A stretch of DNA of 45,204 nucleotides from an uncultured Myxococcia bacterium (GTDB taxonomy: Bacteria; CAZTWC01): the NCBI GenBank assembly GCA_964617105.1, contig CAZTWC010000005.1, positions 1-45,204 of the forward strand, in the 5' to 3' direction. The position numbers were made by a program, and so were the translations under genes. Of the stretch, positions 19,440-40,253 are shown piece by piece; within the stretch, counting starts at the first letter, position 1, and every line of letters begins with the position of its first letter. The notes below the pieces were generated by a model. It was not told the origin of the DNA and did not search any database. It was given only the letters and a program-made list of their open reading frames with translations.

Positions 19440-19516
19440 GCATAAGCGTAAGTTTCTAAAGAGAAGAAAACGATTTTTTTTTAATTGATTATGAAATTAT
19501 AGATCTGGAGAAGCAA

Positions 19517-21055: not shown

Positions 21056-21072
21056 GAGGAGAGGATTTTTAT

Positions 21073-22524: not shown

Positions 22525-22602
22525 TTAACCAGTATAATTCGGTCGGGTACTGACAAGTACACAACCCTGAAACGTTTTCTTGTTTTACTATAAGGATATA
22601 TT

Positions 22603-22839
22603 ATGGCCAGAGTAACTGTTGAAGATTGTCTGCAGAACGTAAATAACCGCTTTGCCCTGGTTCTATTGGCCAGCAAAAGAGCTCGGCAGATATTGAATGG
22701 TTCAAATATTTTGGTGGAGGGTAAAAACAAGGCTCAGGTAATGGCCCTCCGGGAAATAGCCGCCGAGAAAGTCTCCTACAGGGAAGATGTGCAGGAGGTG
22801 TTGTATGAGGATATCGAGAGTAGGCGCATAAAAAAATAA
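22603..22839 (+). CDS. rpoZ: RNA polymerase omega subunit
   Basis: [27 protein letters not shown]...ALREIA. Confidence 0.97.
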
Positions 22840-22864
22840 GAATCCGGCTGCATCCGAATTCTTA
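22837..22864. terminator. Hairpin between convergent rpoZ and argF (possible bidirectional terminator)
   Basis: TAAGAATCCGG-ctgcat-CCGAATTCTTA, one mismatch. Confidence 0.5.
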
Positions 22865-22876
22865 TATATAACCCCT

Positions 22877-23833
22877 CTACAGTTCAGGCTCCTCTGGATA
22901 ATTGCCCATCATAAGCACCAATATGGCTTTTTGGACATGTAGCCGGTTTTCGGCCTGATCAATTACAATAGAGTTTTGGCTGTCTAAGACGTTTCCGGTA
23001 ATCTCTTCTCCACGATGAGCGGGAAGGCAGTGCATCACTTTGGCATTTGGAACTTTTTCCAACAATTGGGAATTTATTTGATAGGGCGCCAGGGTTTTTA
23101 ATCTCTCTTCTCGTTGTTCATCCTGTCCCATAGACACCCAAACATCGGTGTATAGCACATCTGCACCCTGGATAGCCTCATCTACATTTTTATACAGTTC
23201 AATTTTAGACCCGGTTTTTTCCGCTTCTTCCTGGGCCAGTTTCAGGATTCCGGCATTAGGCATATAGCTGGTAGGACAGGCCATGGAAAAATTCATCCCG
23301 GTTCTGGCAGCGGCAAACATCAGTGAATGAGCCACATTGTTGCCATCGCCAAGATAGGTCATTTTTATCCCTTTTAGTTTACCCAAATGCTCTTTGACAG
23401 TAAACACATCGGTCAAGGCCTGACAAGGATGAAGTAAGTCGGTAAGGCCGTTGATAACCGGAATATCGGCATACTCGGCCAACTCTTTTATGTCATCCTG
23501 GGAATAGGTCCTGATCATGATGGCATCCAGGTATCGGGATAATACCATGGCGGTGTCACCAATGGTTTCACCCCGACCTGTCTGCAGATCCGACATGCTG
23601 AGAAATAGACCTATACCACCCAGGTCAAAGATTCCGACCTGGAATGAAACTCTGGTTCTGGTGGAGGGCTTTTGAAAAATCATACCCAGAACTTTGCTCT
23701 CTAACAACCGGTGAGGGATATCGTTTTTTTGTTTATCCTTTAACTCTTGGCTAAGAGAGAGTATCATCTCTACTTCCTGGTTTGAAAGGTCGTAAATTGA
23801 TAAAAGGTCTTTGCCTTTAAGGGTATTTTTCAT
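22877..23833 (-). CDS. argF: Ornithine carbamoyltransferase
   Basis: STRTR, HPCQ, GDGNNV, DVWVSMG, HCLP, DQAENRLH. Anabolic (argF) versus catabolic (arcB) role cannot be determined from sequence. Confidence 0.95.
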   Translation of the reverse strand: MKNTLKGKDLLSIYDLSNQEVEMILSLSQELKDKQKNDIPHRLLESKVLGMIFQKPSTRTRVSFQVGIFDLGGIGLFLSMSDLQTGRGETIGDTAMVLSRYLDAIMIRTYSQDDIKELAEYADIPVINGLTDLLHPCQALTDVFTVKEHLGKLKGIKMTYLGDGNNVAHSLMFAAARTGMNFSMACPTSYMPNAGILKLAQEEAEKTGSKIELYKNVDEAIQGADVLYTDVWVSMGQDEQREERLKTLAPYQINSQLLEKVPNAKVMHCLPAHRGEEITGNVLDSQNSIVIDQAENRLHVQKAILVLMMGNYPEEPEL

Positions 23834-23846
23834 AGCTACTCCTGTC

Positions 23847-23891
23847 TTAGGGTTCCCTTAAAATAACTTCACATTTTCGAGGGAGCCCTTA
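23847..23891 (-). other. Imperfect intergenic hairpin between the arcE-like gene and argF
   Basis: mRNA AGGGCTCCCTCGAAAAT...ATTTTAAGGGAACCCT, directly before the AGGAG RBS of argF. Confidence 0.5.
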
Positions 23892-23900
23892 CTATGGTGT

Positions 23901-25214
23901 TTAAAAAAACTTGGCTAAAACATGATCCAAGGTGACATCCCCTATCTCCTGCAGCCGATAACCCACTGATAGAATTGGTTTATTAACTGATACTATCCGG
24001 TTTAGATCCATAGGAGTGCCGCTGACCACCAGGTCGCAAGGAACAGCATTAATGGTGGCTTCCAGATCGTGGATTTGTTCATCACCGTAGCCCATGGCCG
24101 GCAGGAGGGTGCCAATATTTGGGTAGGAGGCAAAGGTGTCTTTTATTTTTCCTTGCAAATAGGGTCTGGGATCTATAATCTCACCGGCTTTATAGCGCTC
24201 TGCCGCAACATAAGCAGCGCCAAATTTCATTTCACCGTGGGTGAGGGTGGGACCATCTTCTACCACCAGCACTTTTTTATTGGCAATACTTTCGCTGTTT
24301 TCCAAAGTGAGAGGTGAATGGGCTTCCACCACTGTAGCAGTAGGGTTAAAACGGCTAATATTGTCTTTTACAGTCTGGATATCCTCTGCCTTAGCAGTGT
24401 CCATTTTGTTGATTACAATTACATCAGCCCTGATTAGGTTGGTCTCGCCGGGATAGTAATTCAACTCGTGACCCGCACGGTGAGGATCCGTAACTACTAT
24501 CTCTAAATCGGAGCGATAAAAGGGCATATCGTTATTGCCGCCGTCCCACAAGACCACGTCTGCCTCTTTTTCCGCTTCTCTGAGGATGGCTTCATAATCC
24601 ACGCCAGCATAGACCACCACCTGGTTGTTAATATGGCGTTCATATTCCTCCTGCTCTTCAATAGTGCAGTTGTGTTTGGTTAAATCTTCAATAGAACCGA
24701 ATCTTTGCACCCGTTGTCTAACCAGGTCGCCGTAGGGCATGGGATGGCGCACAGCCACTACTTTTTTTCCATTTTTTTGCAGCACTTCCGCCACTCTGGA
24801 GGTGGTTTGACTTTTTCCACAGCCAGTGCGAATAGCGCAAATAGAGACCACCGGTTTGGTCGACTTCACCATGGTTTTTTCCGGGCCCATCAAAATAAAA
24901 TCAGCACCAGCCGCCTGAACCAGTGAAGCCTTATGCATCACGTACATATGAGGTACATCACTGTAGCAAAAATATACCTTTTCGATGTCCATCTCTTTGA
25001 TGAGATTTTTTAGGTTTTCCTCTGGATAGATTTTTATTCCCTCGGGATACAATTTTCCGGCTAGTTCCGGAGGATAACGCCGGTCAGAAATATCGGGGAT
25101 TTGGGTAGCGGTAAAGGCTTTTATATCAAAACGGTCATTGTCTCTAAAGTAGAGATTAAAATTGTGAAAATCTCTTCCTGCTGCTCCCATGATTAACGCT
25201 TTTATCCTCTCCAT
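23901..25214 (-). CDS. arcE: Cyclic 2,3-diphosphoglycerate synthetase-like P-loop protein; probable arginine synthetase (ArcE-type)
   Basis: MGAAGRDFHNFN, AFTATQIP, RTGCGKS P-loop, RHPMPYG, WDGGNND, EDGPTLTHG, LPAMGY. Directly upstream of OTC. ATG 25214 follows GAGGTG. Family call is strong; the ArcE function is inferred. Confidence 0.8.
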   Translation of the reverse strand: MERIKALIMGAAGRDFHNFNLYFRDNDRFDIKAFTATQIPDISDRRYPPELAGKLYPEGIKIYPEENLKNLIKEMDIEKVYFCYSDVPHMYVMHKASLVQAAGADFILMGPEKTMVKSTKPVVSICAIRTGCGKSQTTSRVAEVLQKNGKKVVAVRHPMPYGDLVRQRVQRFGSIEDLTKHNCTIEEQEEYERHINNQVVVYAGVDYEAILREAEKEADVVLWDGGNNDMPFYRSDLEIVVTDPHRAGHELNYYPGETNLIRADVIVINKMDTAKAEDIQTVKDNISRFNPTATVVEAHSPLTLENSESIANKKVLVVEDGPTLTHGEMKFGAAYVAAERYKAGEIIDPRPYLQGKIKDTFASYPNIGTLLPAMGYGDEQIHDLEATINAVPCDLVVSGTPMDLNRIVSVNKPILSVGYRLQEIGDVTLDHVLAKFF

Positions 25215-25331
25215 TACACACCTCATTTCAAATTGAAATTACAAAATTGGAATGCCGAATTTGGGCATTTTTCTATTGGCGGTTATTATTATCAAAAGCG
25301 CTTTTTTGGTCAAGGTATTTTTCGGAAAGAT

Positions 25332-25358
25332 AAGCCCCTGAAATAAAATCAAGGGCTT
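25332..25358 (-). terminator. Stem-loop after the giant Cys-rich gene
   Basis: Minus strand AAGCCCTTGA-TTTTATT-TCAGGGGCTT (10-bp stem with one G-U pair) about 20 bp after the stop; weak U-tract. Confidence 0.5.
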
Positions 25359-25377
25359 TTGGAGGGTGAAAACCGGT

Positions 25378-28300
25378 TTATTGGCAACTAAAGTTGATAC
25401 ACAGCTGATTTTGAGGGCAATCTTCATCTCGGCGGCAGCCTGGCACACAGATGTGTTCTTGACAAATTTCACCGGCAGCGCATTGCCCATCGTTGACACA
25501 CTCTTGCAGTTTACACAGATTGTCACGGCAGAAGTATCCGGTCTGGCAGTGTGCATCCTGGGTGCAGTCAACCGCTTTGCATTTGGTGCTCTGGCACACA
25601 TGTTTTTCTGCACAATCCTGATCTACCCGGCATCCACTGCGGCATTGACCACCATCACAGATTCTTCCGTCTCCACAATCTTTGTCCAGCAGGCAGCCGG
25701 TAAAGACACACCGGGAACGCTGGCAGGAGAAATTTTCCGGGCAATCTTTAGAGGTGGCGCACTGAGCCGCGATACAGCCGCCATTTTCGCAAATTAAACT
25801 TGTTGGGCATTCCAAATCCTGCTTGCAACTTATCTGCTTACAGCGTCCATGCACACAGTCGTACCCGGTCTGGCACTGGCTGCGGTTCCGGCACTCTCCA
25901 GAACCACAACGACCTCCCTGACAAATCTGGCAGGAGAAGAAGTTACAGGTACAGTCGGTGTCACTCTGGCAACTGCTGCCAGAACCCACGCATTTACCAG
26001 TCACCGTGTTACAGGTATAAAACACCGGACAATCAGCATCGCTCTTGCATTGGTCCAGATTTTTACATTGCCCGCTGATGGTGTCGCAATTTTGGCCCGC
26101 AGGACAGTCAGCATTGCTGCGGCAACGGCCCTGGGGCAGGCATTGACCAGAAGCCACATCACACTTGAATCCCTGGGAGCAGTCGGTATCTTTGTAGCAG
26201 CCACCATCCGGCACACATTTTCCGCTGTTGGGATCACAAAGCTGTCGGGTGTCGCATTCGCTATCACCACGGCAGCCGGGTATGCAGGTGCCTGATTTGC
26301 AAAATTGCCCCTGGGGACAATTTTCGTTGATATGGCAACCCAGGCCAACGCAGTTAAAATTGTCGCAGTATTCGCCGCTATTACAGTCCACATCGGTAAT
26401 GCACTGAACTTGAACACACTTGTTGTTCTGGCAGACATTTTTTTCTGGGCACTGGGCGTTGGTGCGGCATCCGGCAGTACACTCACTGTTTTGGCAGATA
26501 AAGCCCTCTCCGCAATCTCCATCCTGGGTGCAGCCGCCTAAGACACATCGTCCACCTTTGCAAATGTAACCCCGTTGGCAGTTAATGTTACTCTGGCATT
26601 CTGGAGCGGAGCAATAACCGCCCTGACAGATGGTGCCGCCATCACATTCACTATCCTGACGGCAAGTTTTGGCTACGCATCTGCCCCGCTGACACTCCTG
26701 GCCGGCAGTACAATTGCTGTTATCCAGGCACTGGGGAGGAGAGCAGTTGTTTTCAATGCAGATGGAGCAGTTGTCACCCAGGCAGGGACAGTCTGTATCC
26801 TGGGTGCACTCAGGTCCTATTCCTTCACATTTATTGGTTTTGGTGTTGCAACGATATCCGGTAGGACAATCACTGTCGCTTTGACAAAATCCCTCTTGGT
26901 TTTTACATTGGCCATTCAGGATGTCGCAGCGCTGGCCCAGCGGACAATCCTGATCGCTTTTACAAGTGCCACTGGTGATACAATTGCCGCTTTTCAAGTC
27001 ACATTTTTCTCCGGTTTGGCAGTCATTGTCGCTCCAGCAACCGAAGTCGGCAATACATTTGCCATTTTTAACATCGCAGATCTCCCGCTGGCCACATTCA
27101 CTATCACCACGGCAGCCGGGCATACACTTCCCTTGAATATTGCAGAAGGTTCCGGCGGCACAATCGCTGTTGTCTTGGCACAGGGCGCCAATACACTGGT
27201 AATTGGAGCATACCTCGCCAGTTTGGCAATCGGTATTTACTTTGCACTCCACCGCCAGGCAACTGTTGTTTTTACAGATGCTCATCCCCTGACATTCGCT
27301 GTCACTGCGACAACCCAGAGCGCATAAATTTTTCAGACAGATCTGTCCCGGCGAGCAGTCGGAATCACGGCTGCAGCCGCCCAGGATACAGTTGTTGCCA
27401 ATACACTTTTCTCCGGTTTGACAATCGGAATTATCCAGACACTGCACTACCACGCACCGGTTGCTCTTACACAGAGCCAGGCCGGAGCAGTCGGTGTGAC
27501 GGCGGCAGCCAACCGTGCATTTGGCAGCAATGCAGATGAAACCAGAAGTGCAATCGGCATCACGTAGACAGCCGCCTTCTACACACTGGTAATTGATACA
27601 TTTTTTACCCTGGTCACATTCCGAATCGTTACGGCACTCTACGCTCTGGCAGCGGTATTGCAGACAAATTTCTTTGCCTGTACAGTCGCTGATGATCCTA
27701 CAGCCGGTGCGGCAGGTCCCACTCAGGCAGATCATACCGGTTTGACACTCCTGGTCAGTATTGCAGCCCCCCATTTTACAGGTATAGTTAACACATTTTT
27801 CTCCCTGGCTACAGTGGCTGTCTGCCGTGCACTCCACTGAGGTGCAGATATAGTTTATACAAGCCATTTGGGCCGGGCAATTGTCGGTAGCGCGACAGCC
27901 GGTGCGGCAACGTCCGCTCAGGCAGATTTCTCCCTGCGGGCAAGTGGAATCGCTGTAACAACTGTTGCCGTAGCATTGGTTTTTGACACAACTGTGATCG
28001 CTGGGACAGTCGCTATCATTACGGCAAGCCACCTGAATACAGCGTTGGTTCTGGCAGATAGACTTTTCCGGACAATCCAAATCGCCACGACAACCTACCT
28101 GGCAGCGGCTGGCATTGCAGATTTTGCCCTGGCCGCAATCGCTGTCCACATTACATTCCTCTACACAGGAATTGTTCAGGCAGGTCTGATTACTCAGACA
28201 GTGGGTATTGGTAGTGCATTCCACGGCCACGCAGCGTCGTCCGCTGCATATCTGCTTATCGCCGCAGTCCGAAAGGGTACGGCAGCCTGTTCGGCATTTG

Positions 28301-31300
28301 CCGGACAGGCAGATATATTCTGACTGGCAATCACTGTCTTTACTGCACTGATCGGAACAGAGATTGTTGCGGCAGATCTTGCCGTCAAGGCAATCACTAT
28401 TGGTCAGACAGTCCACTGAAACGCAGCGGTTAAGCCGGCAGAGCGCCCTGCCCTGGCAGTCTGTATTCTGGCGGCATCCTACAGTGCAACTGTTTTGGAT
28501 ACAGATATGACCAGTCTGGCAATCAGTATCTGCCAGACAGCCACCATCAACGCAGAAATAGTTTTTGCAGATCTTATTATCGCTGCAATCGTTGCTAGTC
28601 AAGCATTCCACTGGGGTACACTTGTTGTTGATACAGAGTGCTTTGCCCGAGCAATCGGTTTGCTGGCGGCAACCCGACTGGCAGATACTCTGCTGGCAAA
28701 TCTGACCGGTCTGACAATCGCTGTCAGCCAGACAGCCGCCACCCACGCATTGGTTATTCAAGCATTTGTGGCTGGTTGGGCATTGGCTGTCTTCCAGGCA
28801 TGAAACTGGATAGCACCGGTTGGCGGTGCAAAGGGCAATCACTGGGCAATCACTGGTGCTGCGACAACCCTCCTGGCAACTGCTGTCTAGACAGATTTGT
28901 CCTTTTGAGCACTGGTTGTCTTCAGAGCATTTGGCGTAAATACAGCGGTAATTCTGGCAAATAAAGCCCTGAAAACACTCACTGTCTTTTTGGCATTGCG
29001 GTCCTGTGCATATTCCTCCTTGACAGATGGCATCGCCGGGACAGTTGGCGTCACTGGTGCAGGTGCGCCTAACGCATCTACCGCGCTGACATTGATGAGT
29101 AGATGCGCAACCTAAATTATCAGTACATTGGGGAGCGGCACAGCGACCATTTTCACAGATGGAGCAGTAACTCATCTGACAGGGACATTTACTGTCATCA
29201 CTGCACTGCTGTCCAATCCCTTCGCATAGTCCGGTGGTGATATCGCAGCGTTGCCCCACCGGACAATCACTGTTTGCGGTGCATTTGCTGGATTTACATT
29301 TTTTGGTGAACATGTCGCATACAAAACCAGCGGCGCAGTCCTCACTGGTTTTGCATGAACCGCTTTGTAACACACACTTGCCACTGTCCAAATCGCAGCG
29401 TTCCTCTTGTTTGCAGTCGCTGTCAGCCCAACAACCGCTGTCGGGGAAACATTTTCCCGACGAAATATCGCATAGTTTTCGTTTGCCGCAATCAAAATCT
29501 TTTTGGCAACCGCCATCGGGTTTGCAGATATGGATATCCAGGTCGCAGACCTGCCGGCTCTGGCAGTGGGCATCGGTGGTGCAGTCCACCTTTTCGCATT
29601 TACCACTGCCCAGGTAGCAAATCTCCTGCTCAGCGCAGTCTGCATCTTTTTGGCAACCCTGGCTCAGGCATTTGTTGTTTTGCTGGTCGCAACGTTGATT
29701 GGCCAAACAGTGACTGTCCTGAGTGCACTCTACCGACAGGCACTTGTTGGCTGAGCATATTTGCTTTTCCTGGCATTGACTGTGGTCGCGGCAGCCAATC
29801 TGGCAAAGATTACTTTGGCAGATTTGTCCTGGTTGACAGTTATCATCGTTATGGCAACCTCCCTCTAAACATTTATAGTTAATGCAGCGGGCTGGCGGCT
29901 TGCTGCTGATGGGGCTGGCACAGTGACCATCGTTGGTGCACTGGACATCCTGGCAGCGACCGGTATTGAAATTGCATAACTGCTTTTCCAGGCAATCGCT
30001 GTCTTGTTTGCAGAAGGGGATGCATTTATGGGTAGTCATATTGCATCTCTGATCCTGGCTGCAGTGGAAGTCGGCATTACACTCTACCTGGTAACAACGA
30101 CCACTGTTTATCTCGCACAACTCCCGTTCTCCACAATCGCCGTTGCTCTGGCAGAAGATAGCACAGGTATAGGTAGCCATATTGCACTTGTTGCCTGCCG
30201 GACATTGGCTGTCAGTTTTACATTCCACGGCCAAACACTTGCCGTTTTGGCAGACCTCCCGTTCTTTGCACTGATCACTGCTGGTACAGTAGGGTATGCA
30301 CGTATAATCTTTCAAACTGCACTTTTGGGTGCCTCCGCAATGAGCATCGATTTTGCACTGTACCTGATAACACTTGCCGCTTTGAGTGTCACACAACTCC
30401 TGTTTACCGCAATCGCTCTCTTTTTCACAGCGCAGGCTGCATTGATGGAAGTTGGTATTGCAAATTTTGCCCTGGGGACAGTGACTGTTGGTTTTACACT
30501 CCACTGGGTAACACTGGTTTTGGGCAGTGTCGCACAACTCTTTTTCCTGGCAGTCGGCCTCAGTTTGACAGTAAGGTATACATAGATAGTTGGTGGTTTC
30601 ACATCGATATCCTTTTGGGCATTGACTGTCCTGGCGACATTCCACTACTTTGCATTTTCCCGTGTCAGTCTGGCAGATCTCTTTTTCACCGCAGTCGTTA
30701 TTGCTCTGGCAGATGTCAAGGCACTGGTGGAATTGCAGATCGCATTTTTTACCGGCCGGGCACTGGCCTTCTTTTTTACACTCCACCCGGTAACATTGGT
30801 GGATATTGTAGTTGCAAATCTCAAAATCGGAACAATGTTCATCACTGCTGCAATAGGGCTGGCAAACAAAATTCAAGCATTTGAAGCCAATGCCGCAATG
30901 CTCATCGAGTTTGCAGGCCACCCGGGAACAAATCCTGGTTTGTGGATCGCATACCTCCAGGGCCCCACATTGACCATTATTTTCACATCCCATAACACAC
31001 TTATTATCTTTACACACTTCGTTGTTACGACATTGACCATCATTGGTACAGGCATTTTCTTGACAGGAATAGTTCTGGCAGCGTCTATCCAACGGGCAAT
31101 CTTTATCTTCCAGACATTCCACCGGCCGGCATCGATTCTCCTGGCAGACCTCTTTTTCTTGGCACTGTTGGTTATCACGGCACCCCGTCTGGCAGGCGCC
31201 ATAGAGGCATATTTTGCCCTGGGAACAATCCTGGTCTTGACCGCACTTGTCTATCTGGCAGCGCCCATTCTCGCACCGGTATCCAGATGGACATTGACTG

Positions 31301-34300
31301 ACTCCTCCGCACTGGGCCGGCTTACAGATATCCTCCCGGCAAATCAGCCCCTGGCCGCAGTCTTGATCCTGGGAACATTTTTTCGGGGCACAGCGTCCCA
31401 GGTTACACTCCTGGCCAGGGCCGCAATTACCACCACCAAAACATTCCGGCTGGCCACATTGGCCGTTTTGACAGATCAAACAGTTGCCCATGAAACACGG
31501 GCAGCTTTTGTCGCTTTGGCAAGCAGGGCCGATACCAGTGCATTTACCGCTGCCAGAGTCGCAAGTTGATCCCATTGGGCAATCGCTGTCTTTTTGACAA
31601 CCCTCAATTTTTTTACACTCTCCTAAAAACAGGTCGCAGTGCGTTCCTTTTGGACATTCTTCATTGCTGCTGCATTTTCCTGAAGCAAGCAGGCATTTTC
31701 CAGTGGCGGTTTCGCATTTTTCACCCTCTTTACAGTCGCCATCTTGTAGGCAACCGGTATCTTGGAAACACTTGCCGCTGGATAGATCGCACCAGTAGCG
31801 TTGCTTGCAGTCTTCATCCTTTTTACAGCCCTCTTTAGGTATACATTGGCCACTCAGAAGATCGCAGATATGACCTTCACTGCATTCTGCATCGTCCATA
31901 CAGCCGCCATCCTGCTGGCATATATGATTCTGGATTTGGCAAACCTGCCTCACCGGACAATGGCTGTCTTGGCGGCATTCCACCGCCATACATTTGCCGA
32001 TTTTCAGGTCGCAGCCCTCTCTCTCTTTACATTCAATATCTTCCTTACAGCCCGGCTGGCAGGTCCCATTTTGGCAAAAGAGTCCGGCTGGGCACTCAGT
32101 GCTGCTTTGACATTTAGCACCCACGCAAAGATAGTCCTTACATTTCTCTTCTGGGCGGCAATGGCTGTCCTCCAGACAGGCCACCTCTTTACATTGGTAT
32201 TCCTGGCAGATAAAACGCCTCTGCCCCAGGCAGTCGGAATCGAGTCTACAGCCTACGCGGCATAGAGATTCCAGACAAATCTCACCCGACTGGCAATCGC
32301 TGTCAGCCTGACAAATAGAGTAGACACAGCGTTGGCTTTTACATAGAAAATCATTGGGGCAGTCGCTGTCTTGTCCACATTGGGCTTTGGTGCAGAGCAA
32401 GTTTTGACAGATTGCCTGGTCGCCGCACTCCTGGTCATTCTGGCACTTGCGGACTTCACATCTTCCATTTTTACAATTTTGAAAACTCTGGCAGTCATCC
32501 TGGTTGAAGCACTGGGGAAACCCGCATTTGCCCTTTATACAGATCGTACAGTTGGAAAACAGGCAGGGACAATCGGTGTCGTTATTGCAGGATGGACCCA
32601 CGCCCACGCATTTGCCCTGGCTGGTGTCGCAATTGGAGCCGGTGGGGCAGTCTTGGTTGGAACTACACTTGTCTGTACTGCGACAGGAGTTGGAAAGCAG
32701 ATCGCAGGTTTGTCCGAAGGGACACTCCTCATCGGTATTACACTGGCCGCTTAAATTGATACATTTTCCAGTCTCCAGTTCACATTTTTCTCCAGATTTA
32801 CATTCAGAATCTTTCCAGCAGCCGTTGTCTTTGAAACACTGATTAGAAGTTAGATCGCAGTGTTCCCTTTTCGAACATTCGCTATCTGATTTACAACCGG
32901 AATCCGCGATACACAGGTTATTCAACAGGTCGCATTTAAAGCCAGAGGGGCAGTCCTCTTTAACTTTACACTGCACACTTTTACACTCACCGCTCTCCAG
33001 ATCGCAGATCTCTTTTTCTTTACAGTCTATCTCTCCCCAGCATCCCTCGTCTTTGACGCAAATATGCAGAGCAATATTACACAAGTTACGATCCGGGCAG
33101 TGTTTATCTTCCCGGCACTCCACAGGTGAACAGGTTCCGGTAGGCAGATCGCAGATCTCCTTTTCAGTGCAGTCACTATCCTCCCAGCAACCACTGTCTT
33201 TAACGCAAAGATGAGTATTCAGGTCACACTGGTAACGCGCCTTGCACTCAGAATCATTTTTACACTCCACCTCTTCACATTTGCCAGTTTCCAGGTCACA
33301 AACCGAACTCTGGTTGCAGTCAGCATCCTCCCAGCACCCCTCTCCCCTCTGGCATTTGTTAGTGGCGGTATCGCAGTAATACCTGGTCTTGCACTGCTCA
33401 TCAGTTTTACACTCTACGCTCAGGCATTCACCAGAGGTCATCTGGCACATCGAACCGGTGTCACAATCAACATCGGCCCAGCACCCCTTGTCTTTGACAC
33501 AGCGGCTATTTTGGCAAATATGGCGAGTTTTGCAATCGCGGTTGTGGCTGCATTCCACTGGTTCACATAAACCTGTTTTTAAATTGCACCCCTCTTTGTC
33601 CAGGCAGTCCTGGTCAGATTTACAGCCCTCTTCTGGGCGGCAAACATGGGAAAAATCGCATTTATACCCGGCTAAGCAATCTGTATCGCTCTGGCACTGC
33701 TGCTGATAACATAAACCAGTAGCCTGGTCACAAATCTGGCCCGGGCTACACTCTTCCAGTTTATGGCAACCACTGTCCAATTGACACAGACCGGAAAAGT
33801 AATCGCAAAATTTACGGGCTCCACATTGAATGTTGGTGGTGCATCCCTTGTCTACAGTGCACATGCCGGATAACAGGTCACACCTTTTTCTGAAGGGGCA
33901 AGTAGCATCGGTTAAACAACCGCCGTCAGGCTCACATTTTTTGGTTTCTATCTGACATTTTTCCCGGTCAGAGCAATTTTTATCGGCATCACAGGACAGA
34001 TCTTCAATACATTTGCCGCCTATTGGTTCACATCTCTCCTTCTCCATACAATCGGAGTTTGATTTACATCCCTCACTACCCGGAAAACATAGTCCAGATT
34101 TAAGATTACAGATATTACGCGGCCCGCAATCATCATCACGCTGGCACCCGCTGTCAGAAGAGCATTTGCCACTATCCGGCAAGCAAATTTCCCTGGAGGC
34201 GCACTGATCTCCGGCCCAGCATCCCTGGTCGGAGAAGCAATAGGTTTGATTGGGTTCACAGATTTGACGACTGCTACAGTCGCTGTCCTGGCTACATTTA

Positions 34301-36081
34301 ACTCTCTCCTCACAGCTGCTGGTGTACCTGTTACAAACCTGATTGTCACTGCAGTCACCGTTGATTATACATTTTACTGGCGGCAAACACTGTTTTTGCC
34401 GGCAGACCCTCTTCTGCGAGCAATCTGTATCCAGATAACAGTCAGGCAGGGGCAGGCAGAAATTCTGGACGCAAAAGGAACCCGATTGGCAGTCTATATC
34501 AAAGTTACATTCTTTTTGGTGATCCGGTTTGCAGACGCCCAACAGGCATATATAGCCCTGAGTGCATTCGCTGTTGGCAGCACAGCCGGCGGGACGGCTG
34601 CATAGCCCCTGGTCGCATTGAAAGCCCGGTACTCGCAGGCATTCTCCCTGGTCGAGACAGGGGATATGGGGGGAGCATCGATAGTTTAGGCAACGCCAGT
34701 GTTTGTGGCACTGATCATCTTTTTGGCAGGATGGTGGTTGGCAAGTACCAAATTCACACTGCTCCCCGCTCTTACAGTCGGCATCACTAACACACTCAAA
34801 GGGAGCAATACAATAGTTGTCCACACAAAAAGCCCCTGGACAATCCCGATCTTCACGACAACCAGTCAGTCGCTGACAAATTCCCTCTTTACACTCGAAT
34901 CCCCTGGCGCATTCGCCATTATCCTGGCAACTGACCGGAGTGCATTTTCCACTCTCCAGGCAAAAATGGTTGACTGGGCAAGGATTTTTCTCTGAACAGG
35001 AGTTTACTTGGCAATAACCATCTTTACAGGTATATATTGAGGGGCACTCTCGATTATCTTTTCCTCCGCAAGCAAAAAGGGAGAAGCAAATACTCTCAAG
35101 ACATAATTGCCCCGAAGGACAATCCTGGCTCTGGCGACATAAATGCAAGGGAAGACAGCGGGATTTCTGGCAAAGATAGCCAGAGGGACAATCATCACTG
35201 ACATTACACTCATCGGGCAGGCATTGGTTCTCTTGACATTTAAAACCAGGAGCGCACTTACCATCTTTATCGCAGGGCTCGCTTTTTTGACATTGCCCTT
35301 TATAGCAGATATGCCCCTCCTGGCAATCAGCATCGCTGTAACACATAGGTTTGGTTCGGCAGGTGCCTTCAAAACAGATCTCTTCCGGCTGGCAATCGCT
35401 GTGTTGGCTGCAAGATGGCAGGCAATCCTGGTTCACACATTTGGTGCCACTGGGACAAGAGTCCAGGTCGCCACATTTTTCCCTCTGCTTGACGCACTTG
35501 TTCTGCAGGCAATCAAACCCCTCGGGGCAATCGTTTTCCACCTGGCAAGCATTGATTACACATTTACCCTTCAAGCATAAATACCCATCCTGACAGTCTT
35601 TCTCTTCCTGGCACTCAGCTTTGGGGACGCATATTCCTCGTTGACAGTCGTCTGTTTGGCTACAATCGCTGTTGTCAGCGCAAACCGTACCTTCTGGTTT
35701 GTAGACCTGGCAGTAGTTTTCCAGGCATATAAAACCGGAGTAACATTCATTTTTATCCTGGCATTTTAGTTTGCATATTTTGTCTACACAGTCCCAACCA
35801 GCGTAACAATCATCGTTTGCAGCGCAGGAAATTGGTTCTGACACACATTGGTTACCTACACAGTGCATTGAAGCATAACAGTCCCCGTCATCCTGGCAAG
35901 ATGCCGGTATTGGAACACAGCGACCGCCCTGGCAGGTAGTGCCGGTGAGGGTGGGCTGACAATCGCTGGCCAGTTGGCACTGTCTCGAGGCAATTTGTCC
36001 GCAGGCACTCAGCAAAAGGGCCAGGCACAGGCATAAAACCAATAGAGTAGTTTTAATGGTTTTTAACAAATAAGACTTCAT
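25378..36081 (-). CDS. Giant (3567 aa) cysteine-rich repeat lipoprotein
   Basis: 10.7-kb uninterrupted ORF, AAAGGA RBS, signal peptide ending LLSAC (lipobox), then continuous ~21-27 aa units C-xx-D-x-[DE]-C-x5-C-x4-6-C to the C-terminus. Confidence 0.93.
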   Translation of the reverse strand: MKSYLLKTIKTTLLVLCLCLALLLSACGQIASRQCQLASDCQPTLTGTTCQGGRCVPIPASCQDDGDCYASMHCVGNQCVSEPISCAANDDCYAGWDCVDKICKLKCQDKNECYSGFICLENYCQVYKPEGTVCADNSDCSQTDDCQRGICVPKAECQEEKDCQDGYLCLKGKCVINACQVENDCPEGFDCLQNKCVKQREKCGDLDSCPSGTKCVNQDCLPSCSQHSDCQPEEICFEGTCRTKPMCYSDADCQEGHICYKGQCQKSEPCDKDGKCAPGFKCQENQCLPDECNVSDDCPSGYLCQKSRCLPLHLCRQSQDCPSGQLCLESICFSLFACGGKDNRECPSIYTCKDGYCQVNSCSEKNPCPVNHFCLESGKCTPVSCQDNGECARGFECKEGICQRLTGCREDRDCPGAFCVDNYCIAPFECVSDADCKSGEQCEFGTCQPPSCQKDDQCHKHWRCLNYRCSPHIPCLDQGECLRVPGFQCDQGLCSRPAGCAANSECTQGYICLLGVCKPDHQKECNFDIDCQSGSFCVQNFCLPLPDCYLDTDCSQKRVCRQKQCLPPVKCIINGDCSDNQVCNRYTSSCEERVKCSQDSDCSSRQICEPNQTYCFSDQGCWAGDQCASREICLPDSGKCSSDSGCQRDDDCGPRNICNLKSGLCFPGSEGCKSNSDCMEKERCEPIGGKCIEDLSCDADKNCSDREKCQIETKKCEPDGGCLTDATCPFRKRCDLLSGMCTVDKGCTTNIQCGARKFCDYFSGLCQLDSGCHKLEECSPGQICDQATGLCYQQQCQSDTDCLAGYKCDFSHVCRPEEGCKSDQDCLDKEGCNLKTGLCEPVECSHNRDCKTRHICQNSRCVKDKGCWADVDCDTGSMCQMTSGECLSVECKTDEQCKTRYYCDTATNKCQRGEGCWEDADCNQSSVCDLETGKCEEVECKNDSECKARYQCDLNTHLCVKDSGCWEDSDCTEKEICDLPTGTCSPVECREDKHCPDRNLCNIALHICVKDEGCWGEIDCKEKEICDLESGECKSVQCKVKEDCPSGFKCDLLNNLCIADSGCKSDSECSKREHCDLTSNQCFKDNGCWKDSECKSGEKCELETGKCINLSGQCNTDEECPFGQTCDLLSNSCRSTDKCSSNQDCPTGSNCDTSQGKCVGVGPSCNNDTDCPCLFSNCTICIKGKCGFPQCFNQDDCQSFQNCKNGRCEVRKCQNDQECGDQAICQNLLCTKAQCGQDSDCPNDFLCKSQRCVYSICQADSDCQSGEICLESLCRVGCRLDSDCLGQRRFICQEYQCKEVACLEDSHCRPEEKCKDYLCVGAKCQSSTECPAGLFCQNGTCQPGCKEDIECKEREGCDLKIGKCMAVECRQDSHCPVRQVCQIQNHICQQDGGCMDDAECSEGHICDLLSGQCIPKEGCKKDEDCKQRYWCDLSSGKCFQDTGCLQDGDCKEGEKCETATGKCLLASGKCSSNEECPKGTHCDLFLGECKKIEGCQKDSDCPMGSTCDSGSGKCTGIGPACQSDKSCPCFMGNCLICQNGQCGQPECFGGGNCGPGQECNLGRCAPKKCSQDQDCGQGLICREDICKPAQCGGVSQCPSGYRCENGRCQIDKCGQDQDCSQGKICLYGACQTGCRDNQQCQEKEVCQENRCRPVECLEDKDCPLDRRCQNYSCQENACTNDGQCRNNEVCKDNKCVMGCENNGQCGALEVCDPQTRICSRVACKLDEHCGIGFKCLNFVCQPYCSSDEHCSDFEICNYNIHQCYRVECKKEGQCPAGKKCDLQFHQCLDICQSNNDCGEKEICQTDTGKCKVVECRQDSQCPKGYRCETTNYLCIPYCQTEADCQEKELCDTAQNQCYPVECKTNSHCPQGKICNTNFHQCSLRCEKESDCGKQELCDTQSGKCYQVQCKIDAHCGGTQKCSLKDYTCIPYCTSSDQCKEREVCQNGKCLAVECKTDSQCPAGNKCNMATYTCAIFCQSNGDCGERELCEINSGRCYQVECNADFHCSQDQRCNMTTHKCIPFCKQDSDCLEKQLCNFNTGRCQDVQCTNDGHCASPISSKPPARCINYKCLEGGCHNDDNCQPGQICQSNLCQIGCRDHSQCQEKQICSANKCLSVECTQDSHCLANQRCDQQNNKCLSQGCQKDADCAEQEICYLGSGKCEKVDCTTDAHCQSRQVCDLDIHICKPDGGCQKDFDCGKRKLCDISSGKCFPDSGCWADSDCKQEERCDLDSGKCVLQSGSCKTSEDCAAGFVCDMFTKKCKSSKCTANSDCPVGQRCDITTGLCEGIGQQCSDDSKCPCQMSYCSICENGRCAAPQCTDNLGCASTHQCQRGRCVRRTCTSDANCPGDAICQGGICTGPQCQKDSECFQGFICQNYRCIYAKCSEDNQCSKGQICLDSSCQEGCRSTSDCPVIALCTANRCYPVSCLEDSQCPTSHKCLNNQCVGGGCLADSDCQTGQICQQSICQSGCRQQTDCSGKALCINNKCTPVECLTSNDCSDNKICKNYFCVDGGCLADTDCQTGHICIQNSCTVGCRQNTDCQGRALCRLNRCVSVDCLTNSDCLDGKICRNNLCSDQCSKDSDCQSEYICLSGKCRTGCRTLSDCGDKQICSGRRCVAVECTTNTHCLSNQTCLNNSCVEECNVDSDCGQGKICNASRCQVGCRGDLDCPEKSICQNQRCIQVACRNDSDCPSDHSCVKNQCYGNSCYSDSTCPQGEICLSGRCRTGCRATDNCPAQMACINYICTSVECTADSHCSQGEKCVNYTCKMGGCNTDQECQTGMICLSGTCRTGCRIISDCTGKEICLQYRCQSVECRNDSECDQGKKCINYQCVEGGCLRDADCTSGFICIAAKCTVGCRRHTDCSGLALCKSNRCVVVQCLDNSDCQTGEKCIGNNCILGGCSRDSDCSPGQICLKNLCALGCRSDSECQGMSICKNNSCLAVECKVNTDCQTGEVCSNYQCIGALCQDNSDCAAGTFCNIQGKCMPGCRGDSECGQREICDVKNGKCIADFGCWSDNDCQTGEKCDLKSGNCITSGTCKSDQDCPLGQRCDILNGQCKNQEGFCQSDSDCPTGYRCNTKTNKCEGIGPECTQDTDCPCLGDNCSICIENNCSPPQCLDNSNCTAGQECQRGRCVAKTCRQDSECDGGTICQGGYCSAPECQSNINCQRGYICKGGRCVLGGCTQDGDCGEGFICQNSECTAGCRTNAQCPEKNVCQNNKCVQVQCITDVDCNSGEYCDNFNCVGLGCHINENCPQGQFCKSGTCIPGCRGDSECDTRQLCDPNSGKCVPDGGCYKDTDCSQGFKCDVASGQCLPQGRCRSNADCPAGQNCDTISGQCKNLDQCKSDADCPVFYTCNTVTGKCVGSGSSCQSDTDCTCNFFSCQICQGGRCGSGECRNRSQCQTGYDCVHGRCKQISCKQDLECPTSLICENGGCIAAQCATSKDCPENFSCQRSRCVFTGCLLDKDCGDGRICDGGQCRSGCRVDQDCAEKHVCQSTKCKAVDCTQDAHCQTGYFCRDNLCKLQECVNDGQCAAGEICQEHICVPGCRRDEDCPQNQLCINFSCQ

Positions 36082-36129
36082 AAATTGAGTCCTTTCAAAT
36101 GATCAATAAAGGGTAATCATTGTACTTAA

Positions 36130-36146
36130 TGCAATTTTGGTGCCGG
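36130..36146 (-). promoter_or_regulatory. sigma54 (-24/-12) promoter upstream of the giant lipoprotein gene
   Basis: Minus strand CCGGCACCAAAATTGCA = GGCAC-N5-TTGCA, about 50 bp upstream of the ATG. Confidence 0.72.
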
Positions 36147-36406
36147 AGTCAAAGGTTATTATTGAGCCAGTCGCGAGAACTCCTTTAACATAGGGGGTAT
36201 TTTCCTGTCTTTGCGGCCTGATATCTATAAAATCTATCACTACTGGCCTCCAAATTGTTAACTTTGGTATGCAGTAACTATAAACTATAGTTGATGATTG
36301 TCACTGTCTCTCCGTATATAGTCCCCCTAACCCGGCTTGGAGAAGTAGAAGAACACTTCAGAATGGCAATTAACAATAAAATCCTGCGCAAACGTGGCAA
36401 AAGTTA

Positions 36407-37453
36407 TCAGGAATCAACAGTCTGGTAATAATTAGCTTTAATCAACTCATAAACCGATTTCGACAGCCAGGTCTGATTGATATACTGTGGGTATACTGCC
36501 AGCCTCTCCTTGAGGTGGCAGCCTATCTGGCGCAGGTATTTTTGCAAATCCTTTACCGTTGGCCAGGGGCTCTGGGGATTTATCTGGTCAGGATCAATGG
36601 CAATGCCTCCCAGGTCAGAAACGCCAGCTGTGATCATTTTTTGCCAGAATGAGGGTGACCATTCAATAAGATTGGGGGGGATCTGCACCGCTGGACCGGA
36701 CAGATGGTGTTTAAGCCTATAGTCGCTTACATAACTTATCAACTCCAGAATCTCTTCATCATTTAGCGGTATAGTCAAAGGCAGCCTGGAGTTTTGATTG
36801 GGCTTATAGGACTGGATAATAATCTCCTGCAAATGACCATATTGGCGATGAATATCCAGCAATCTCTCCAGAGAGTCAAAACGGCTCTCCCTGCTCTCCC
36901 ACATGCCAATCAGGATGCCGCTGGTAAAGGGGATTTTCAATTCACCCGCTGTTTTTATCATCTCTATCCGGGTGGCTATATCTTTTTGGGGATGCACCTG
37001 GCGGCCAAAATCAAAATCCAGATTTTCCAGCATCAGTCCCATGGAAGCGCAAAAGGGGCGCAAGAGTTGCAACTCCTCCTGGTTTAAAACTCCAATATTA
37101 ACATGGGGCAGCAATTTACTGACCAGGGCCAGTTTGCATATCTCAATGACATATTGAATCAAAGAGGTAAAACCATTTTTTTGTAATCTATCTACAAAAA
37201 GTTGGGAGCGCTCCGGCCTTTCACCACTCATAATCAGCACCTCTTTGGGTTTAAAGTTTTGATTTTGAACTGTTTTGTGAGATTTTAAGTCAAGGGCATC
37301 TTGCTTTTGCTCCAGGTTAAGAAAAATTTCCTTCACCATATCCATTTCTATCAGATCAACCTGATCACGGAAAAAACCACAGTAGAGGCAGCGGTTGGGG
37401 CAGAACCGGCTCACCACCAGGGTGATATTTTGACTATAGGTAATGGTTGTCAT
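36407..37453 (-). CDS. cofG: FO synthase subunit 1 (CofG-like radical SAM)
   Basis: ITYS.N...CPNRCLYC, LLPHVNIG, SMGLMLE, IPFTSGILIG, GHLQEIIIQ, QIPPNL, DLGGI...INP..PWP. Confidence 0.85.
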   Translation of the reverse strand: MTTITYSQNITLVVSRFCPNRCLYCGFFRDQVDLIEMDMVKEIFLNLEQKQDALDLKSHKTVQNQNFKPKEVLIMSGERPERSQLFVDRLQKNGFTSLIQYVIEICKLALVSKLLPHVNIGVLNQEELQLLRPFCASMGLMLENLDFDFGRQVHPQKDIATRIEMIKTAGELKIPFTSGILIGMWESRESRFDSLERLLDIHRQYGHLQEIIIQSYKPNQNSRLPLTIPLNDEEILELISYVSDYRLKHHLSGPAVQIPPNLIEWSPSFWQKMITAGVSDLGGIAIDPDQINPQSPWPTVKDLQKYLRQIGCHLKERLAVYPQYINQTWLSKSVYELIKANYYQTVDS

Positions 37454-37469
37454 CTCATCTCTATCTCTG

Positions 37470-38696
37470 TCAAACAGTTTCGAATCCCATTTTCCATATA
37501 TCTTTGATGGCAGTGAAGCAGTCTCCCCGGCGGCATACTATCTGGTTGTCAAATGGTTCAAATTGGTATTTTTTATATATATCTGCCACCTGTTGATAAA
37601 TTCTGGCCATGTAATTGAAAGATGGCGGCTGGCTTTGGGCGAGTTTGCTGCCCTTGATGGGCATAAAAGGGACTATAGAGGTATTTATCCCCATGGAGAT
37701 GGCCGATTCAGCGCCTTCAACAATAGATTCTGGATCCTCTCCCAGTCCGGCGATAATCATGGTACTCACCCGGCCGGGTCCAAACAGTTTTAATCCCTGC
37801 TGCCAATTTTTTTGATAGAGTTCCAGAGATAATCGTCCCTTGGCAGGCATCACCTGGCGCCGGAGTTTTTGGTCAAATATTTCAAAATTGCAAAACATCC
37901 CCTGATAACCACAGGCTTTCAATCTCTCCAGCCAGGTTAGCTCCTCAACCGCTTCAAAACCAGCCACCAGGAAAAAATCGTTTGAGCGCAAAGAGCAGGG
38001 TAACTCTTTGGCCGCTTCCACCAGTTGCCTGATTCCCTTATCTGGGCCAGGCAGGGTGGCAGTGTTGATCACCAGCCGCTGCAAAGGAATTTGTTTATCA
38101 TCAACCCCCTTCTTCTCAACTGGTGAGATCGTTTTTGCGGGAGAAAGCGTTTCGGTGGGAGAATCTGCTTCTGGCGGGGGGCGCCGGCCCCTTTTCCACC
38201 ACTGCCGGTGGCCGCAAAAAGCACACCCTTCTCCTCTCTGCTGGTAACAGCAGGCCAATTGCAAAGTGGTGCGGGCAGTGTCATACTCCATTTGAAAGAA
38301 GGGCCAGGGAGATTTTAGTTCCCTCTGCCGGTTTTCACCAGTGCTGGTTTCAGGCAGTCGGAAAGATGGCAGTCCTTCAAAGGATGAGCAAAAGCCAGGA
38401 TGTTGATTGAGAGCAACAAAATCACGGTTATGGCTGTTATCCTGGCAATAAACGATTTTCCAGCCTTCATGTTCAAGAAAAATCATTTTAAATGGTTGGT
38501 CATGGTGATGGCTGAAAGAGGTTAAGAGGGCTAAATTCGGTGAGGTCTGATCCGGTTCACGGATCTCGATTATCCCATTTAAAGGAGAGAGCCACAAAAC
38601 CGGCGGTTTCAGAGATGGATCATCGCTTTTAAACTCTGACGGCAAATATATGGTGCCCACCTGCAGGGCAACTTTTTTCCCCGCCAGAGTCAGCAT
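37470..38696 (-). CDS. Divergent radical SAM protein resembling the MSMEG_0568 / biotin-synthase-related family
   Basis: Atypical cluster motif CCYQQRGEGCAFC, T.TLPGPDKG, RRQVMPAKG, LFGPGRVSTMIIAGLGE, VPFMPIKGS.L...PP. ATG overlaps the cofH stop. Confidence 0.7.
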   Translation of the reverse strand: MLTLAGKKVALQVGTIYLPSEFKSDDPSLKPPVLWLSPLNGIIEIREPDQTSPNLALLTSFSHHHDQPFKMIFLEHEGWKIVYCQDNSHNRDFVALNQHPGFCSSFEGLPSFRLPETSTGENRQRELKSPWPFFQMEYDTARTTLQLACCYQQRGEGCAFCGHRQWWKRGRRPPPEADSPTETLSPAKTISPVEKKGVDDKQIPLQRLVINTATLPGPDKGIRQLVEAAKELPCSLRSNDFFLVAGFEAVEELTWLERLKACGYQGMFCNFEIFDQKLRRQVMPAKGRLSLELYQKNWQQGLKLFGPGRVSTMIIAGLGEDPESIVEGAESAISMGINTSIVPFMPIKGSKLAQSQPPSFNYMARIYQQVADIYKKYQFEPFDNQIVCRRGDCFTAIKDIWKMGFETV

Positions 38697-39890: not shown

Positions 39891-40253
39891 TTATTTTTTG
39901 GGGTCAGCCAGTTTGACCTCTTTTTTGTGTTTGCAATCGCCCTTGCACTCACCTTTACATTCGCATTTGTGTTCGGCTGCTTTTTTATGCGGGCATTCCC
40001 CTTTTGCTTTTTTGCACTTACACTCGTGCTGCTTAGCCTCTTTTTTGTGTTTGCAATCACCCTTGCACTCACCTTTACATTCGCATTTGTGTTCGGCTGC
40101 TTTTTTATGAGGGCACTCACCTTTTGCTTTTTTACATTTGCACTCGTGATGCCCGGCACCAGACGTATCTTTATCACAGGCCAGCGATTGGCTTATATTG
40201 GCAGTCATCATTAAAAATACGATGGCCGCTAAACAAACAAGTATTTTTTTCAT
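39891..40253 (-). CDS. Secreted small Cys/His/Lys-rich metallothionein-like protein with an internal duplication
   Basis: Signal peptide MKKILVCLAAIVFLMMTANISQSLA; the 95-aa mature part has 15 Cys and 9 His with CxC motifs. AGGAG RBS. Confidence 0.8.
   Translation of the reverse strand: MKKILVCLAAIVFLMMTANISQSLACDKDTSGAGHHECKCKKAKGECPHKKAAEHKCECKGECKGDCKHKKEAKQHECKCKKAKGECPHKKAAEHKCECKGECKGDCKHKKEVKLADPKK
39917..40148. repeat. 120-bp period tandem duplication within the metallothionein-like gene
   Basis: 39917-40028 versus 40037-40148: 7 differences, all synonymous in the 39891..40253 frame. Confidence 0.93.

Follow-up and report, generated by a model that had tools for sequence, protein, structure and literature searches.

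How would a diderm bacterium oxidise, move and display a lipoprotein of 3567 amino acids (aa) made of small cysteine modules, and what purpose would such a chain serve in a free-living marine cell? These questions are raised by a gene on the minus strand of contig CAZTWC010000005.1, from the metagenome-assembled genome (MAG) of an uncultured Myxococcia bacterium (GenBank assembly GCA_964617105.1); the window analysed here is this entire 45.2-kb contig (45,204 nucleotides). On balance, we consider that the encoded giant protein is probably an acidic chain of beads, anchored by lipid and stapled by disulfides, that serves structurally as a tether, spacer or fibrous coat. The structural role is suggested by the lack of any enzymatic or head domain, and the reading is developed below from the composition and module plan of the protein, its modelled fold and its relatives.

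The open reading frame (ORF) starts with ATG, contains no internal stop and ends in CINFSCQ. The protein begins with MKSYLLKTIKTTLLVLCLCLALLLSAC, followed by GQ, and its signal sequence has basic residues at K2, K7 and K10, a hydrophobic core and then L-S-A-C27. Lipoboxes of the pattern [LVI][ASTVI][GAS]C are substrates of signal peptidase II, and this pattern, together with the n-region and h-region, is present in the giant protein, predicting cleavage before Cys27 and lipidation. Windows of 19 aa with a Kyte-Doolittle value >1.6 start exclusively at residues 4-15, and the maximum beyond residue 30 is 1.13; no C-terminal sorting tag and no hydrophobic window past residue 30 were found. The original prediction, made from the letters of the DNA alone, had described a 3567-aa lipobox protein with no catalytic domain, C-terminal transmembrane segment or sorting motif, and this description agrees with the intact ORF, the LSAC lipobox, the single hydrophobic segment, the detection of repeat families only and the end of the chain one residue past the last cysteine. 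The mature chain of 3541 aa (385.5 kDa, pI 4.84) is strongly acidic, with 506 Asp and Glu versus 359 Lys and Arg and a net charge of about -147. The features at the two ends of the gene are as follows.

25378..36081, minus strand: whole gene for the 3567-aa lipoprotein precursor, from the ORF call and translation
36090..36096, minus strand: Shine-Dalgarno-like GAAAGGA, 8 nt 5' of the ATG, read from the sequence and of putative function
36082-36406: upstream intergenic region, 325 nt
36001..36081, minus strand: signal peptide and lipobox, residues 1-27, with LLSAC, Cys27 and Gly at +2, assigned by the general lipobox pattern
25378..25380, minus strand: stop codon, one residue past the last cysteine, with no C-terminal tag or transmembrane segment

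The 621 cysteines of the protein (two in the signal peptide, one in the lipobox and 618 beyond it) account for 17.41% of its residues, which is the maximum among the 1827 stop-to-stop ORFs of at least 300 aa in the genome (median 1.15%) and far above chance. Beyond the lipobox the longest cysteine-free gap is 11 aa, and because the gaps between cysteines never exceed this length there is no space for any other domain; Pfam and NCBIfam scans of the protein found no families other than repeat families. The 618 cysteines parse exactly into 147 four-cysteine units and five six-cysteine modules, giving 152 modules, close to the roughly 150 units and 600 cysteines first estimated. That this even number exactly fills 147 x 4 plus 5 x 6 positions counts in favour of a disulfide-stapled fibre.

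Units of two types are prevalent. Type "a" (81 of the 147) has the spacing Cx5Cx5Cx4C and the consensus C-x-x-D-S-D-C-[QP]-x-G-x-I-C-x-N-[GN]-[RK]-C, and type "B" (57 of the 147) has the spacing Cx5Cx5Cx6C with a C-D-L-x-[ST]-G-K-C hairpin; thus, 138 units have canonical spacing (5-5-4 or 5-5-6) and nine are variants. The linkers between units are 1-9 residues long, mostly 3-6. A polyprotein precursor of knottin-like peptides was considered and ruled out, as the linkers of 3-6 variable residues contain no conserved cleavage site. The motif C-xx-D-x-[DE]-C-x5-C-x4-6-C, originally thought to run throughout the chain, is valid as a consensus and fails as a rule, with 57 strict matches and 93 matches after relaxation to [DN]/[DENQ] by overlapping regular expressions.

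The five six-cysteine modules, here called CPC modules, have the spacing C-x5-C-x-C-x4-C-x2-C-x4-C. In order, the chain reads a23, B24, CPC, a7, B7, CPC, a7, a mixed B/a run, CPC, a30, one intermediate 5-5-5 unit, B4, CPC, a7, B4, CPC and a8. In an alignment of five 198-aa segments, each with a CPC module at its centre, all shared 45-46% identity with the first and 57 columns were invariant, so that the five CPC modules punctuate five super-modules of about 45% identity. In addition, a three-unit repeat of 64-65 aa occurs nine times across residues 2385-2967, its copies sharing 40-61% identity with the first aligned row. The protein is therefore a hierarchy, from units through two- and three-unit periods to super-modules of about 360-800 aa; the earlier view of a chain consisting solely of four-cysteine units was correct in admitting small cysteine modules only, but overlooked both the CPC modules and this hierarchy. 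At the DNA level the units are diverged, as had been noted before: Tandem Repeats Finder returned 0 rows and the longest exact internal repeat is 20 nt. The duplications are old, with the cysteine framework retained. The modules map to the window as follows.

34372..35979, minus strand: N-terminal run of 23 units, nearly all a-type, residues 35-570
32590..34371, minus strand: run of 24 units, mostly B-type (CDLxSGxC hairpin), residues 571-1164
32524..32589, minus strand: CPC module 1, residues 1165-1186
31456..31521, minus strand: CPC module 2, residues 1521-1542
29140..29205, minus strand: CPC module 3, residues 2293-2314
27181..28929, minus strand: nine copies of the three-unit super-repeat, residues 2385-2967
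26743..26808, minus strand: CPC module 4, residues 3092-3113
25906..25971, minus strand: CPC module 5, residues 3371-3392

We modelled two segments with AlphaFold2. The 198-aa B-CPC-a segment, with the five super-module segments as alignment, gave a mean predicted local distance difference test (pLDDT) score of 81.4 and a predicted template modelling (pTM) score of 0.55, and the 65-aa three-unit segment, with the nine triplets as alignment, gave a pLDDT of 90.9 and a pTM of 0.61. In both models, every unit consists of a three-residue helical turn over D-x-D followed by a two-stranded hairpin containing Cys3 and Cys4, so that the module is confidently modelled as a short turn plus a beta-hairpin. 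Foldseek returned no row at E<=0.001 with either model; the best row, the Dkk4 N-domain (E 0.025, probability 0.90, TM score 0.36), was not significant, and the giant protein had no Pfam match to Dickkopf_N (PF04706) at E<=1, whereas one of its relatives, P0014, did. Nab2 zinc fingers, the sole Protein Data Bank (PDB) sequence matches of the 198-aa profile (E 0.02), were judged spurious.

These properties suggest a possible path for the chain. Following Sec export, the precursor would be lipidated at Cys27, and the 3541-residue chain would fold module by module, being oxidised during or after translocation, with two disulfides stapling each of the 147 units and three stapling each of the five CPC modules, up to 309 intramolecular disulfides in all; by analogy, the pairing may be C1-C3/C2-C4. 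Oxidation could be performed by the VKOR/DsbA-type system of the cell, and because the cysteines of each unit span 18-20 residues, vectorial folding may require little isomerisation. The product would be an acidic string of beads resistant to proteases and shear, with an extended length that we estimate at about 0.1-0.3 micrometre; for 152 modules of roughly 1-1.5 nm each, the estimate is 0.15-0.23 micrometre. From this length, we infer a location at the outer surface, where the protein may belong to the outer envelope of this marine, Myxococcota-like bacterium as a structural element, be it a tether, a spacer or a fibrous coat.

Genes for oxidative folding are present in the genome. Specifically, one 403-aa frame (contig C263, 1132-2205, minus strand) encodes a fusion of VKOR with a DsbA-like thioredoxin domain, and there are five further Thioredoxin_4 (DsbA-like) matches above the cut-off, two of them within one 387-aa frame (contig C128, 73-1146, plus strand), and one DsbD/CcdA-type (DsbD_TM) match; DsbB was not found in this 96.5%-complete genome. 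The oxidative machinery is a general one, the neighbouring genes are unrelated and no dedicated exporter is encoded at the locus, leaving the specialised export and folding route once proposed for this protein unsupported.

Two known families describe the repeats. Pfam DUF7107 (PF23416) matched the protein in 30 stretches with 140.6 bits (E 1.9e-41), exceeding the gathering cut-off of 24.6 bits, and gave repeated matches in the giant frame in a six-frame search of the genome. NCBIfam TIGR04201 (Myxo_Cys_RPT) matched in 35 stretches with 32.6 bits (cut-off 25), single copies reaching 27-29 bits in the six-frame search. Together with the repeat region of TraA, described below, these families agree with the original prediction that the repeat type is known from myxobacterial proteins.

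A HMMER search with residues 1088-2287 against 1.84 billion representatives yielded 999 relatives at E<=1e-3, of which 178 reached E<=1e-10 and 18 reached E<=1e-30; the top match is a protein of 2148 aa with 36% identity, named at NCBI as a hypothetical protein of a Myxococcota bacterium. Among the best 150 relatives, those longer than 2200 aa include P0041, P0048, P0102, P0110, P0128 and P0136, which are poorer in cysteine and have cysteine-free stretches of 213-876 aa, as well as the arthropod protein P0054 and P0004 (2528 aa, 17% Cys). When five top matches were scanned, DUF7107 was present in four and an additional C-terminal PPC domain in two.

A pattern scan covering one genome per species revealed 23 related loci, nearly all in MAGs labelled Myxococcota, Myxococcales or Deltaproteobacteria. 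Four of these, L119 (2014 aa, 351 Cys), L121 (1806 aa), L123 (1727 aa) and L125 (1260 aa), encode repeat-only lipobox proteins that also terminate right behind the last unit. DUF7107 lipoproteins of Myxococcota-labelled MAGs share with the giant protein a lipobox, 5-5-4 and 5-5-6 units running to the C-terminus and a cysteine content of 17-18%, and are 28-39% identical to its super-module (36% for P0014), but they are shorter (1260-2148 aa versus 3567 aa) and many carry extra domains. The CPC module was absent from all 23 related loci and from the other ORFs of the genome with >300 aa and >=10% Cys; with a loose pattern, none was found elsewhere in 196 fetched proteins, except for one each in three entries of a copepod cluster. 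The giant protein is the largest repeat-only lipoprotein found here and the sole one with CPC modules, and the smaller, uncharacterised examples in other MAGs show that the architecture recurs and is maintained.

For full-length homologues, 287 candidates of 1961-6243 aa were searched. Twelve proteins were found at E<=1e-5, all 24-26% identical; two are named arthropod proteins, most have EGF-type Pfam domains, and a copepod protein among them falls in the cluster of P0013. There was no bacterial full-length orthologue among these 287 candidates, and no exact copy exists in a collection of 15 billion proteins. In the ESM Atlas, the nearest clusters were Myxococcota DUF7107 proteins, with scores of at most 0.86 that serve as leads only.

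The same genome encodes further cysteine-rich proteins: 28 of the 1827 ORFs have >=10% Cys, 21 ORFs have at least three unit patterns and four have at least ten, the closest paralogues being on contig C24 (982 aa, 40-43% identical to parts of the giant protein) and contig C262 (1349 aa). With these 28 ORFs and the repeat-only relatives of 1260-2014 aa in other MAGs, the uniqueness first ascribed to the protein was overstated. Contig C4 holds three further giant lipoproteins, all on the minus strand, of 3773 aa (38356-49674), 3450 aa (28007-38356) and 2362 aa (17981-25066). Those of 3773 and 2362 aa are poor in cysteine apart from a single four-cysteine unit directly behind the lipobox, an arrangement that fits a role of the module as a spacer close to the anchor.

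In the literature, we found no paper on DUF7107, and for cysteine-rich-repeat lipoproteins of Myxococcota we found only the work on TraA. Two preprints were set aside, one (10.64898/2026.06.07.730663) for dealing with a different repeat (Cx6-9Cx5-7Cx8-11Cx7-8CC) and one on diatom trail proteins for concerning DUF4215.

TraA, the outer-membrane-exchange receptor of Myxococcus, is described as combining a variable recognition domain with about a dozen or fewer cysteine-rich repeats, each of about 20 aa, and with a MYXO-CTERM tag at the C-terminus (PMC13184517). According to a published hypothesis, its repeats build a cell-surface stalk on which the recognition domain is displayed, and in-frame deletions are reported in which the first repeats were dispensable and the distal ones essential (PMC6372800). 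The giant protein shares the repeat type with TraA, since TIGR04201 is above its cut-off, and the TraA model NF033759 scores 161.2 bits against a cut-off of 750, its best stretch pairing profile positions 286-386, in the repeat region, with residues 1795-1901. However, the giant protein differs in its 152 modules, its lack of a head and of a C-terminal tag and its N-terminal lipid anchor; no TraA-like variable recognition domain was found by Pfam or NCBIfam in a chain with cysteine-free gaps of at most 11 aa. Because it has the repeats but neither head nor tag, it is not a TraA. A genome search with TIGR03901 (MYXO-CTERM) gave no match, which is uninformative because the controls gave none either.

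A second parallel is offered by animal structural proteins. The avian eggshell membrane protein CREMP, Dumpy and the Chironomus silk protein Sp185 (16.8% Cys) are treated as a class of structural proteins with tandem two-disulfide modules; CREMP modules, spaced Cx4Cx5Cx8C, pair C1-C3/C2-C4 (PMC12723725). CREMP, Sp185 and octovafibrin are described as consisting almost entirely of ordered tandem two-disulfide hairpin modules with short linkers, with roles in fibres or mats (PMC12723725), a plan resembling that of the giant protein. These animal proteins, however, are secreted and have no lipid anchor, and our analysis showed no sequence relationship to CREMP and its kin, although a four-module CREMP entry (9pgb) appeared among the Foldseek rows. 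The disulfide-stapled filament or matrix protein envisaged originally is still the best reading when judged by analogy, the structural-fibre role paralleling the proposed TraA stalk and the animal Dumpy and CREMP fibres.

The likeness to Dumpy also extends to the sequence. When the profile of the nine triplets was compared with 177,635 distinct PDB sequences, the top match was 1oig_A, "Dumpy, isoform Y" (E 0.0025, 21.1 bits), spanning residues 3-22 of its 24, and Foldseek superimposed the model on 1oig with a root-mean-square deviation of 1.3 A over 22 columns (41% identity). The consensus spacing of the Dumpy DPY module is given as Cx5Cx5Cx4C (PMC12723725), exactly that of the 81 "a" units. 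A comparison of 83 5-5-4 modules of the giant protein with 495 unique ones from 12 arthropod-type proteins showed agreeing residue preferences at nearly all positions (R2, D4, S5, D6, P8, G10, E11, I12, N15, G/N16 and K/R17). In hhalign, the unit aligned with the arthropod 5-5-4 modules with a probability of 97.6% and a score of 29.8, compared with 14.5 +/- 2.1 (maximum 19.1) after 100 permutations of the 14 non-cysteine arthropod columns, the arthropod proteins having been retrieved with the giant protein as query. The Pfam family Dumpy_DPY (PF21164) gave best matches of 22.0 and 19.6 bits in the giant gene, below the cut-off of 27, and no match at E<=1 in the hmmscan of the whole protein; at E<=0.01 it had nine matches in this genome and 0 in 14 control genomes. 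The resemblance to animal matrix modules noted originally therefore holds, but the unit appears closer to the DPY module of Dumpy than to the EB or EGF modules named at the time.

Dumpy is likewise described as a giant, membrane-tethered extracellular fibre, with 308 EGF and 185 DPY modules and forming filaments between epidermis and cuticle (PMC12723725). It differs from the giant protein in alternating DPY with EGF modules and having other domain types, whereas the giant protein lacks EGF modules and has CPC modules and the B-type variant. The B type is rare in the arthropod proteins examined (0-8 modules per protein) and common in 149 other fetched matches of mostly unassigned origin (591 modules). 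Small disulfide hairpins can also converge. We therefore put forward only tentatively the possibility that the four-cysteine unit is a true homologue of animal DPY, in a family spanning Myxococcota-like bacteria and arthropod giants and used for fibres as in animals. If so, it would point to an old inter-domain transfer or to an origin far deeper than the animal record suggests; the giant protein would represent, in pure form, a sub-micrometre, membrane-anchored, tension-bearing fibre with about 309 disulfides, in which the knottin-like CPC modules serve as junctions between super-modules. No paper on the DPY module in bacteria was found in our literature search.

Already known before this analysis were the repeat family in the databases, the stalk role of the repeats in TraA and the existence of repeat-only, uncharacterised relatives in MAGs. 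What this analysis adds is a protein of extreme size that has no head domain at all, that carries CPC modules and follows a five-fold super-module plan, and whose units are explicitly linked to animal DPY. If our reading is right, no other bacterial protein found in these searches takes the use of pure two-disulfide mini-modules so far; the 385-kDa chain would need about 309 correct disulfides and be anchored by lipid alone. The comparison links a large, unnamed bacterial repeat family (DUF7107/TIGR04201, to which the TraA stalk belongs) with the DPY module found in the extracellular matrix of animals, providing both fields with a structural model and a possible case of module sharing between domains of life. 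Short arrays of such very stable modules could become rigid spacers for protein engineering.

Other roles can be imagined for the same modules. One is a multivalent array, either an adhesin or a multi-headed inhibitor, in which each module, or each knottin-like CPC, binds a target such as a protease, a surface molecule of prey or host, or a particle. We consider this unlikely: the four-cysteine units have no third disulfide with which to form a knot, no conserved loop resembling a reactive site was seen, and the relatives usually bear separate heads for binding, such as PPC, suggesting that the repeats are scaffolding.

Rather improbable as well, and next in order, is a lipoprotein retained in the periplasm at the inner leaflet of the outer membrane, acting as a scaffold or, with reduced cysteines, as a thiol or metal buffer. 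The Gly at +2 is compatible with ordinary Lol sorting to the outer membrane and there is no sign of a surface flip; 621 cysteines and the net charge of about -147 could bind metals, and a small Cys/His/Lys-rich lipoprotein is encoded 3.8 kb upstream. However, the regular spacing, the even number of cysteines, the hairpin models and the kinship to disulfide-bonded modules favour disulfides over thiolate clusters, an extended chain of 152 modules would far surpass the width of the periplasm, and the metal-like gene is set apart by three unrelated cofactor genes.

A calcium-stiffened rod, with Ca2+ bound by the conserved D-x-D/E of each unit so as to make the chain rigid in sea water, is distinctly unlikely in our estimation. 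Sea water is rich in Ca2+, the protein is strongly acidic, and among the 138 canonical units Asp is present at position 4 in 81 and Asp or Glu at position 6 in 94. But the strict motif occurs in just 57 of the 147 units, the same Asp positions are equally conserved in arthropod 5-5-4 modules, for which we know of no reported calcium site, and no calcium-binding family was matched in Pfam or NCBIfam. In the models, D-x-D falls on the short helical turn that separates Cys1 from Cys2. This position would suit structural capping, which is at least as likely as calcium binding.

The integrity of the gene was examined by aligning contigs of four runs from two studies to 24800-36600. These tile the gene with 0 joints and 0 indels, nearly all being >=99% identical, with one G>A difference at 29208; 30 of 30 bins were covered in runs X1 and X2, at a depth of only about 3-6x, and no single contig among those of the four runs crosses the entire gene. 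The best-matching runs may be the samples behind the MAG assembly itself. Support for the assembly is thus good but not final, and the misassembly that could have undermined the original prediction was not seen. An assembly artefact or non-expressed relic, for which one could cite the fragmented MAG, the low depth without a spanning public contig and the lack of the sequence in any RNA run among the public runs listed, is highly improbable, since a stop-free 10.7-kb frame would not persist by chance, the DNA is non-repetitive, the tiling is uninterrupted and the cysteine framework kept across super-modules at about 45% identity indicates purifying selection. Outside the gene, contigs of runs X1, X2 and X3 break at 25156-25195, within the start of the downstream GTPase-like gene, with differing loose ends that could reflect a strain variant or a branch of the assembly graph. 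The window has three N runs of 10 bases (12411-12420, 16337-16346 and 19776-19785), which represent either scaffold gaps or masked sequence, none inside the giant gene.

The MAG comprises 4.07 Mb in 489 contigs (96.5% complete, 3.35% contaminated, GC 43.8%), and the sequence is present in eight public runs from two studies, labelled as marine or seawater metagenome. In its C-terminal half, RpoB shares no more than about 70% identity with the RpoB of MAGs titled Deltaproteobacteria or Myxococcaceae, and in a FastTree phylogeny of this half the genome was on a long branch (0.44) in no supported clade, the nearest rows being labelled Myxococcota. The host thus appears to be a deep Myxococcota-like lineage, with no finer placement. 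In the set of one genome per species, it has no relatives from genus to phylum and is alone in its phylum.

Between the giant gene, the presumed source of the bead-chain, and the next gene downstream lie 151 nt that contain promoter-like sites and a single, weak terminator-like site, so that the giant gene is probably a lone transcription unit. Downstream lie genes for ornithine carbamoyltransferase and a GTPase-like protein, and upstream those for CofG, a radical-SAM protein and CofH. The GC content of the gene is 50.3%, versus 41.5-45.6% in five adjacent genes, and its GC content at third codon positions (GC3) is 0.53 versus 0.44-0.52; recent horizontal acquisition was rejected, as GC3 is barely raised and the excess of GC is therefore largely compositional.

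Directly upstream of the giant gene, CofG and CofH, the subunits of FO synthase, flank a radical-SAM gene resembling the MSMEG_0568 family (36407-39847, minus strand), and no functional connection of this cluster to the giant gene is apparent. Farther on, 39891-40253 (minus strand) encodes a 120-aa lipobox (LAC) protein with an internally duplicated Cys/His/Lys-rich segment, HECKCKKAKGECPHKKAAEHKCECKGECKGDCKHKK, whose appearance suggests metal binding; no Pfam family was matched by this protein, and its match to an NCBIfam cysteine-rich repeat stays below the threshold. The adjacent 40257-41300 (minus strand) encodes a lipoprotein of 347 aa that matched no Pfam or NCBIfam family and has a cysteine-rich C-terminal tail, CPDDCKEVCSEKCQEKC. 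On the other side of the window, 17705-22524 (plus strand) is an operon of an ABC ATPase, a permease, a GldG-like ABC_transp_aux protein and a DUF4340 protein, the third gene of which contains the N run at 19776-19785.

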